From a virus: 64,000 nucleotides of DNA. Of this stretch, positions 11,862 to 12,905 are shown piece by piece (position 1 is the first letter of the stretch; the number at the start of each line of letters is the position of its first letter). The DNA is taken from the IMG/VR virus record IMGVR_UViG_2802428968_000003. The stretch is one strand, 5' to 3'. Made by a program: the position numbers and the translations under genes. The notes beneath the pieces were generated by a model. The model worked only from the letters and a program-made list of their open reading frames with translations, did not search any database and had not been told where the DNA came from.

Positions 11862-12905
11862 CGCCGCGACGTACTGCACGGCGACGACACGCTCGTGAGC
11901 CACGTCGAACCGTTCCCGCGCGACAAGGACACCACCCCGACCGCGAGGGACCACCGGGACAGGCACCAGGGGGCACTGTGGCATGCCCTGGCACTCGGCC
12001 GGGTCAACGGACGCGCCAGCGACGAGCTCGACCGAATCCGCAACGCGCTGTCGACGACCATCCGCGACATGTGCGAGACGCGCGGGCTGGAGGTGCCCGA
12101 GTTCCGCACGAGTCCAAGGCCTCTGCCGATGGTCGTCGAATCGGATGCACGGCGACCGGCAGATCGGTTCAGCCTCGATTCGGCACCGCCGGCCCGGGCG
12201 GGCTCGTGTCGACGATGCTTCGTCACGTTGCCCACCTCGGCGGCCGGACCGCTGTGCGACGACTGCGACGGCGCCCCGGAGACGCGCGCACTCGACCAGT
12301 TTTCCGCGGAAAACTGGCGCGTCATCTACGCAGGAAGGCGCGGCGACGAGACGCATTCGATCGCGACGACGGCGCGCATGGCCAAGTGGCTGCACCGGCA
12401 CGCGGCCAATATCGCGTTGCAGGAGAACGGCGCCGAGATCTGCGACGAGATCGAGCAGGTGTACCGGTCAATTACACGCGTGGTGAACCGCCCACCCGAG
12501 CCCATGATCATCGGACCATGCATCACCGACCCGGCACCCGACGAGGTGCTTGCCGAGCGGGGCCGCAAGGGCGACAACTCAACCCGGTGCGGATACGCAC
12601 TCATGGCACCGAGCCACAGCGGCTCAATCGTGTGCCCCCAGTGCGACACCGCGCATTCGGTGGCCGACGTGCTGGCACGCAACCTTAGCGAGCTCGACGA
12701 CCGCAACGCGACCGTGCGCGAACTCGTCGACGTGATACTCCCCCGCCTTGATGAGCACGTGCCGCAGTCGACCATCGAGCGGTGGATCAGACGCGGGCGG
12801 GTGCCGGTGCGCGGCCGGGACGCCCAGGGGCACCAGATGGTTCGCATTGGCGATGTGCGCACGGTGCGGGCGGAGCGGCCACGGAACGCGAGGGGCCTCA
12901 CATAA
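11862..12905 (+). pseudogene. 5'-truncated copy of Cys-rich/excisionase-like HTH gene X (about 90% nt identity to 61925..62970)
   Basis: Direct nucleotide alignment by eye against 61921-62970. The N-terminal ~55 codons of the full copy (MTKCKRCERATDLFVCKAC...) are absent. Homology starts at ~11862. Confidence 0.55.

Follow-up and report, generated by a model that had tools for sequence, protein, structure and literature searches.

A probable composite of an old tRNA-Lys prophage remnant and a cluster MabC phage, with an intact attP, in Mycobacterium abscessus

The 64,000-nucleotide stretch of DNA analysed here (the window), taken from IMG/VR virus record IMGVR_UViG_2802428968_000003, corresponds to positions 359731-423730 of contig FVND01000004.1 in the Mycobacterium abscessus assembly GCA_900136445.1. 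A preliminary description had singled out a truncated gene, X', near the left end and a full-length counterpart, gene X, near the right end, and had proposed two related prophages in tandem or a rearrangement mediated by the X repeat. We favor another reading, to which we give a probability of about 0.6: the region is a composite in which an old prophage remnant at a tRNA-Lys gene, bearing X', recombined with a phage of cluster MabC, called phage P below, with inversion of the chromosome and with a partial second P unit, bearing X, at the right.

Self-BLAST of the window returns a single large repeat, 11860-12894 against 61931-62965 (1035 nt, 91.69% identity, E=0), with 86 mismatches, zero gaps and a start-to-start spacing of 50071. 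The imperfect direct repeat of about 1 kb is thereby borne out, its coordinates having been right to within 2-11 nt and its identity (91.7%) being slightly above the earlier estimate. The left copy had been said to lack about 55 N-terminal codons, and homology does begin at codon 55 of X, so that X' is without about 54 of them. X' (11860-12905, plus strand) is open to 12905, while X (61768-62970, plus strand) encodes 400 aa. The sequences 5' of the two copies are unrelated, and the sharp boundary at 11859|11860 marks an old deletion scar. Codon differences between the copies comprise 45 synonymous and 30 non-synonymous changes, for an amino-acid identity of 91.3%. Because the mismatches are distributed over the entire length of the repeat, X' and X look like two diverged, functional alleles of a phage gene and not like a recent or decaying duplicate. 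Related records label gene X a ‘helix-turn-helix DNA binding domain protein’; it matches PHROG 908, a family of unknown function, and a Pfam search with it gave no match.

The left copy belongs to a remnant that can be delimited by comparison with other strains. ARAGORN places a host tRNA-Phe, tRNA-Asp and tRNA-Glu cluster at 11126-11417 (minus strand), followed by tRNA-Lys(ttt) at 11557-11632 (plus strand). In remnant-only genomes the 3' 43 nt of this tRNA-Lys (11584-11626) are repeated directly 8.7 kb downstream, just before a host MFS gene; the repeat lies at 9689 and 18357 in our locus L011 (complete genome CP065263.1) and occurs also in loci L014, L008, L010 and L029. Since the 43-bp repeat recurs at this distance, the remnant is a decayed prophage of 8.7 kb that has retained both attachment (att) sites, with tRNA-Lys as its attL. 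It contains attL, a repressor stub, X', about 10 genes and then attR. A ‘fusion’ of DUF8277 and MFS genes was considered as a sign of deletion into the host gene and was rejected, as the 43-bp attR repeat separates the two; the fusion is a gene-calling run-on in some annotations.

The stub, an open reading frame (ORF) with HTH_31/HTH_3 matches at 11584-11859 (minus strand), has no start codon or promoter and reads into the tRNA-Lys gene. It directly adjoins X', as the preliminary description had it. Its product is 40.6% identical to the immunity repressor of prophiGD43A-3 and 45% identical to that of the Mycobacterium smegmatis phage IdentityCrisis, and window positions 11583-11664, covering the tRNA-Lys 3' end and part of the stub, are 95% identical to the attP region inside the IdentityCrisis repressor gene. 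Given the identity of the stub and this attP match, the remnant has an att and immunity system different from that of P. The tRNA-Lys core occurs once in the window, in keeping with the earlier remark that no copy was to be found near the integrase.

The scar at 11860 is old and shared by many strains, since 1353 assembly blocks index a product identical to the 336-aa X' (11895-12905), for the most part where only the remnant is present. Among the matches listed, most (CP065263.1 is an example) show phage-like genes for only about 7 kb past X', after which host genes resume. A deletion or recombination scar had been suspected at about 11862; the scar is real, but it is not an event of this strain. 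Two genes in the remnant, at 12930-13448 and 13527-14198 (both minus strand), are missing from P, and their products returned no family match. An exact 41-mer spanning 11860 was absent from GTDB species representatives, and a protein-guided scan of the same representatives yielded nothing closer than relatives at 78-87% in Mycobacterium sp. D16Q14, besides weak matches in Tsukamurella, so the remnant is common and yet missing from the GTDB species representative. In several segments the remnant is 85-95% identical to MabC phages now in circulation. It is itself mosaic among strains, since a variant in L029 (11742-15334) carries a gene with HTH_3 and Peptidase_M78 (ImmA/IrrE-like) domains together with P-like 185-, 65- and 364-aa genes.

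Window positions 11860-49700 and 49678-64000 are 93-99% identical to the M. abscessus prophage records prophiGD43A-3, prophiGD51-1 and prophiGD57-1 and to the virion genome phiGD57-1. The late arm of P (14479-48585, plus strand) is 98.9-99.9% identical to prophiGD43A-3 and the early arm (50049-61011, plus strand) 93-98%, with the same gene order, and identity to prophiGD51-1 and phiGD57-1 is 94-96%. The three named prophages belong to cluster MabC and integrate at attB-12 or attB-13 (Table 1, Dedrick et al. 2021, PMC8092301). By nucleotide similarity and gene order P is a cluster MabC prophage. Over the parts compared, its late arm shows no difference from P of sister lysogens (L004, L007; 100% identity), and its early arm is 99.98% identical to that of ordinary attB-13 lysogens.

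Remnant and phage were joined by a homologous crossover at 14437-14478, within a 0.96-kb segment (14211-15171, about 94% identity) that both carry and that holds split D5-like/HTH_23 regulator genes. Between 1895 and 14436 the window and the remnant-only genome CP065263.1 do not differ (100% identity), and all 34 mismatches in the 13-kb alignment fall in 14479-15171. A marker map referred to one remnant-only genome and one ordinary P lysogen accordingly runs remnant-type to 14436 and P-type from 14479. In the right copy of the segment the change is from P-type to remnant-type, at the equivalent of 14510-14538 (L006, L008), and is nearly reciprocal to the left switch; both copies have P-type alleles at the seven markers between the two switch points, a pattern resembling a short conversion tract. 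At the homologous crossovers, identity is unbroken over only 29-42 bp. A hybrid 100-aa protein spanning the crossover is on record only in FVND01000004.1. The alternative of a rearrangement mediated by the X repeat does not hold up: recombination used the 0.96-kb segment, and a crossover within X was rejected both for this allele switch and for the even spread of the X mismatches.

Two other loci are further recombinants between the remnant and MabC prophages, with crossover points unlike those of the window. L010 (9571-14188) switches back to remnant sequence in the segment equivalent to window 18016-18829, and L013 (15943-21011) passes into another late arm, that of a MabC phage other than P, with 97.8% identity to L028 and L030. 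The D5-like/HTH_23 regulator itself (window 14308-15103) is a single 268-aa gene in prophiGD43A-3 and is split into ORFs of 100 and 179 aa in the remnant and in the P lineage; in CP065280.1 (L032 10864-11850) the same gene is interrupted by an IS481-family transposase.

At the center of the window the 18-bp common core TACTCGTGAGTAAGAACT lies at 49678-49695, its single occurrence in the window, inside a 129-aa immunity repressor gene (49578-49967, minus strand), and the tyrosine integrase of P (296 aa, Pfam Phage_integrase) is adjacent at 48667-49557 (minus strand). Window 49400-50100 aligns to the virion genome phiGD57-1 with 100% coverage and 97.6% identity across int, the ‘immunity repressor’ (gene 35) and the next helix-turn-helix (HTH) gene. 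In ordinary lysogens of the same phage, the attL side aligns rightward from 49668, ten bases ahead of the core start at 49678, and the attR side aligns leftward to end exactly at 49695. Because these lysogen ends map onto the core region of the window, the two prophage ends are fused here into an uncut attP. The repressor of ordinary lysogens has 96 aa (L021), all identical to the first 96 residues of the 129-aa form, and its TAA stop is created by the first host base at attL. MabC prophage records annotate attP inside the immunity repressor gene, and the core within the repressor ORF, the neighboring tyrosine integrase and the shortening at attL are together the hallmarks of integration-dependent immunity. 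Truncation of this 129 to 96 aa type by a stop at attL has been described for MabC, whose viral-form repressor is held not to confer immunity (PMC8092301). The 129-aa product ends in ...NKSTRSVS, with no -AA tag, as reported for MabC. This full-length, ‘viral-form’ repressor is on record in 2 contigs only.

Location of attP within the repressor gene also accounts for the module order. In an ordinary MabC prophage the 5' part of the repressor gene lies at attL, and the integrase and the repressor 3' stub lie at attR, so that int comes last, to the right of the structural, lysis and toxin genes. The order that had been taken as reversed is thus normal for these phages. An att core next to the integrase, marking off a single element, had been named as an outcome that would tell against the first proposal. 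The core is indeed there, at 49678 in the intact attP, but it delimits no single simple element.

The right unit continues 1.1 kb past the window to a deletion joint and then attR, with three more genes between X and the allele switch of the shared segment. L006, on the same contig FVND01000004.1, spans window 51768-64000 and 9 kb beyond. At its position 13208|13209, which is 424705|424706 of the contig, the sequence reads CACATGACAGGC|AAACTCTGAG, with 2-bp microhomology and no N, and jumps from the equivalent of 15114 to int codon 13, followed by the repressor 3' end, a second TACTCGTGAGTAAGAACT core and a host adh_short gene. Window 49519-49695 is repeated without a mismatch in the 177 bp that follow the joint. 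The second core lies at window-equivalent 65135, so that the right unit measures 15,457 bp from core to core, and the flank after it (adh_short, glyoxalase, PHO4, through to SodA) is the normal attR flank. The core overlaps the GTG start of the 295-aa adh_short gene; attB-13 has been placed at MAB_3947 (PMC8092301). The left end of the region is the tRNA-Lys remnant and not an attB-13 attL. The right unit is a 15.5-kb deletion derivative of P that ends at attR beside the attB-13 host gene.

These boundaries make it extremely improbable that the region consists of two related prophages in tandem at one attachment site, the first being short of everything from int to the 5' part of X because of a deletion that ends at 11860. 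Two phage-derived units do stand in direct order, their 50071 spacing is close to one genome length, the left unit is without early genes, and tandem prophages with integration-dependent immunity exist in M. abscessus (PMC9934374). The junctions do not share a core, however: the P core is found at the center (49678) and at the right end (65135 equivalent), while the left end has a tRNA-Lys core, belonging to another att and repressor system, that is found nowhere else in the window. The right flank of the whole region is attB-13 and not tRNA-Lys, and site-specific tandem integration at tRNA-Lys was rejected because the central core differs and the tRNA-Lys core occurs once. Moreover, the 11860 scar and the exact X' are present in very many genomes without the rest, and the left unit changes from remnant-type to P-type at 14437-14478. 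What stands of the tandem proposal is the presence of two prophage-derived units in direct order. These units use different att systems (tRNA-Lys and the TACTCGTGAGTAAGAACT core); the left one lacks the early region as claimed, but it is a hybrid of remnant and P that keeps its int at 48667-49557.

How a tRNA-Lys flank came to be on one contig with the right flank of attB-13 is suggested by the orientation of the partners elsewhere. In CP065263.1 the remnant is found at 0.76 Mb, and attB-13, at 3.90 Mb, is occupied by a MabC prophage; the two elements lie on opposite strands, some 3.1 Mb from each other. CM125930.1 shows the same opposed strands and the same spacing, the MabC prophage being at 3.9-4.0 Mb in the two genomes. 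Because of this arrangement, recombination between remnant and prophage must invert the chromosome between them, and such an inversion would link the two flanks as they are linked in the source contig. The sister assembly GCA_900133305.1 has a junction of remnant-left with P late arm at 832 kb of a 1.18-Mb contig (L031) and a junction of P early arm with remnant-right at 641 kb of a 0.66-Mb contig (L008); placed in two large contigs, these junctions fit a plain inversion genotype. What the comparison offers is thus a pair of near-reciprocal hybrid junctions between partners that are inverted relative to each other in the reference genomes.

Insertion of a P circle into the remnant by one Campbell-type homologous crossover, with no inversion and with attP simply left as in the uncut phage circle, would produce some of the same features, and we consider it improbable. 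It would explain why the central attP is laid out as in the virion genome and why the left and right crossovers are nearly reciprocal, and P encodes RecE/RecT-like proteins. Under such an insertion, though, the right unit should end in remnant-right, the tRNA-Lys attR and MFS, as in L008, and it ends at the P attR with an attB-13 flank; the two junctions of the sister assembly lie in different large contigs; and insertion alone cannot yield the second copy of the int', repressor 3' end and core.

Comparison of the sequences shows directly the repeat, the remnant bounded by its att sites, the position of the crossover, the uncut attP and how the contig ends at the right; the order of events is something we infer. 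An old MabC-like prophage would have integrated at tRNA-Lys and decayed to the 8.7-kb remnant, supplying X' and the scar at 11860. The present-day MabC phage P would later have lysogenised at its own site, attB-13, overlapping the adh_short start codon. In our preferred history, homologous recombination between remnant and P then (a) inverts the chromosome and joins the left part of the remnant to the P late arm; (b) attL and attR being now inverted, Int/Xis would flip the segment between them rather than excise P, which would restore attP and the full-length repressor and leave the phage trapped; (c) a 15.5-kb tandem duplication of int', repressor 3' end, core, repressor 5' part, early arm and shared segment would arise at the 2-bp joint; and (d) Int would recombine the second attP with attB to give the observed contig, with attL, the 96-aa repressor and a second early arm at the other junction. 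The resulting second unit would run from early genes through X and a few more genes to the joint, the 13-codon start of int, the repressor 3' end and attR. This succession would explain why the right unit has remnant-type markers and a joint, why attP and attR coexist, and how the strain is viable. The plain inversion genotype has no attP, and every economical path that we found involves a duplication. An alternative path, in which a tandem double lysogen at attB-13 suffers a deletion and then an inversion, fails to explain the markers, and we could construct no simple history that gives the observed contig with a single early-arm copy.

Several points weigh against the composite reading and its history. 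The principal weakness is that economical histories leave two identical 15-kb early-arm copies, which a short-read assembler should not bridge, and the contig is continuous. If there is only one early-arm copy, the strain would be without a truncated repressor; the viral form is held to be non-immune (PMC8092301) and an in-frame fusion non-viable (PMC9934374). The left junction of the sister assembly differs from the window at 17 markers, all in 14479-14904, which shows patchy conversion or independent resolution and means that the two strains do not share one simple event. The joint beyond the window was seen in one contig only among those compared, the assembly is a short-read scaffold, and that of a sister strain (L004) has N gaps. 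The chromosomal inversion, finally, would follow from contig linkage and from orientation in reference genomes.

Some of these same points would be expected if the right-hand part were an assembly or scaffolding artefact in which the 15.5-kb early-arm segment with X has been misplaced after int. The true genome would then have tRNA-Lys, remnant-left, P late arm and attR in one place and attL, early arm and remnant-right elsewhere, and X' and X would not be neighbors on one molecule. We regard this as unlikely. The pipeline is a short-read scaffolding one with N runs in the sister scaffold, few records show the attP context (it is in 2 contigs, while the antirepressor is in 127 blocks and int in 730), the left breakpoint of the joint falls within a 66-bp stretch identical in both copies, and a lysogen whose sole repressor is the viral form should not be viable. 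On the other hand, the attP junction and the joint CACATGACAGGC|AAACTCTGAG are specific and free of N, they require real reads, and a repeat-graph error would not make such sequences; the 177-bp segment is present twice; a second contig, in another block, carries the 129-aa repressor in a similar context; and the identical stretches at the crossovers are shorter than typical k-mers.

A further possibility, which we regard as a long shot, is that Int/Xis flips a 2-3 Mb segment back and forth between an immune state (96-aa repressor) and a non-immune state (attP, 129-aa repressor), the window being a fossil of this cycling in which a duplication joint connects attP and attR on a single molecule. 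In a bolder variant the strain lives with the full-length repressor only; if true, the MabC viral-form repressor would be functional, against the current model.

Each component of the composite is known, among them MabC phages, integration-dependent immunity, toxin cassettes, tandem prophages and prophage-driven inversions; it is the arrangement that is unusual. The MabC attB-13 prophages prophiGD51-1, prophiGD57-1/phiGD57-1 and prophiGD43A-3 resemble P in int, the repressor with attP, the 18-bp core, the attR flank, the gene order and the presence of a WXG100/polymorphic-toxin cassette beside int. Unlike them, P does not lie here between attL and attR: its late arm is fused to the remnant, its ends are rejoined as attP, and a 15.5-kb partial unit follows. 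Systems of integration-dependent immunity (Broussard et al. 2013, as summarised in PMC8092301 and PMC9934374) likewise have attP in the repressor ORF and int immediately downstream, but the chromosome of the window carries the full-length, pre-integration repressor gene, unlike their lysogens.

Tandem prophages are unusual in M. abscessus (Amarh et al. 2023, PMC9934374), and the closest parallel is prophiT36-2a/b of strains T36, T38 and T48 (PMC9934374), where two units also stand in direct order, both have integration-dependent immunity, and the central junction brings a repressor 3' remnant up against a repressor 5' part. In T36 the units are different phages at a single shared tRNA-Thr attB, fused out of frame at the center, whereas the window has a native, in-frame attP; its left boundary was made by homologous recombination with the remnant, and its right unit is a deletion derivative. 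Homologous recombination was argued not to be involved in the T36 tandem, and an in-frame fusion of repressor and 3' remnant was argued to be unstable, giving a non-viable lysogen (Amarh et al. 2023, PMC9934374).

Prophage-mediated inversions occur in other bacteria, for example Streptococcus pyogenes and E. coli O157, where inverted phage sequences recombine, megabases are rearranged and hybrid prophages result. The present case differs in that one partner is an 8.7-kb decayed remnant and in that attP lies in the repressor of the phage, so that attL and attR become inverted as well. A literature search for prophage-mediated inversion in M. abscessus found no relevant paper, and descriptions of the tRNA-Lys remnant as a recurrent recombination partner, or of a chromosomal uncut attP/repressor, were not found in it either.

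In annotation, it would be wrong to treat the region as two independent prophages, and X' should be taken as a mark of the common tRNA-Lys remnant. Arm exchange between this remnant and MabC phages is seen in at least three different recombinants (the window and L008 as one; L010; L013). Such exchanges can invert megabases and reshuffle prophage toxin and immunity cargo in M. abscessus, and they will often be shown wrongly in short-read scaffolds. The literature on integration-dependent immunity predicts that a full-length repressor gene kept in frame on the chromosome, with attP intact, is non-immune; if real and single-copy, this configuration would test that prediction; if a truncated copy exists elsewhere, the full-length gene is a harmless by-product.

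Gene calls and Pfam matches identify in the late arm of P a terminase (20147-21736), a portal (21751-23199), a protease (23193-24446), tail genes, lysin A (42359-43006), lysin B (43003-44178) and a holin (44317-44613), all on the plus strand. A WXG100/polymorphic-toxin cassette adjoins int on the minus strand (45447-48212) and contains two WXG100 genes, a 550-aa polymorphic toxin and a 166-aa putative immunity protein. It is unlike the Tox-REase-5 cassette of prophiGD43A-3, with identity breaking at 45412-48335, a difference consistent with the cassette exchange reported for MabC prophages. The exact P integrase, indexed in the 730 blocks cited above, is normally followed by attR and the host adh_short gene. 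In L038 (8836-10891) the P-type integrase adjoins, int to int, a 304-aa integrase of a different prophage carrying Tox-REase-5, another unusual double-prophage layout at or near attB-13.

The early arm encodes, on the plus strand, a Cro-like HTH protein (50049-50279), the antirepressor (50276-51052; the 127 blocks given above), a RecE-like protein (53002-53886), RecT (53883-54908), a DnaQ-like protein, a methylase (58457-59107) and a replication initiator (60082-61011). Beyond X, a gp27-like membrane-protein gene (63014-64000, plus strand) runs off the window; it has a G+C content of 53% against about 65%, a predicted membrane character and no family match. It is present in P, and in the remnant two unrelated genes stand in its place.

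The host side of the tRNA cluster is also variable. Integrase-bearing elements lie just left of the tRNA-Phe/Asp/Glu/Lys cluster in other strains (L014 7889-9094, L016 7901-9103 and L017 206-7900), with integrases of 401, 400 and 356 aa respectively and, in L017, additional FtsK/SpoIIIE-like genes; several unrelated elements have integrated at this tRNA cluster, a hot spot of integration. Window positions 1100-10700 hold an array of paralogous small membrane-protein genes, one of which matches DUF3592, with direct and inverted repeats inside it (5384, 8687, 9304; 1526/5405). Copy number in this array differs among strains, 6464-9279 being missing in L012, L013, L015 and L018.

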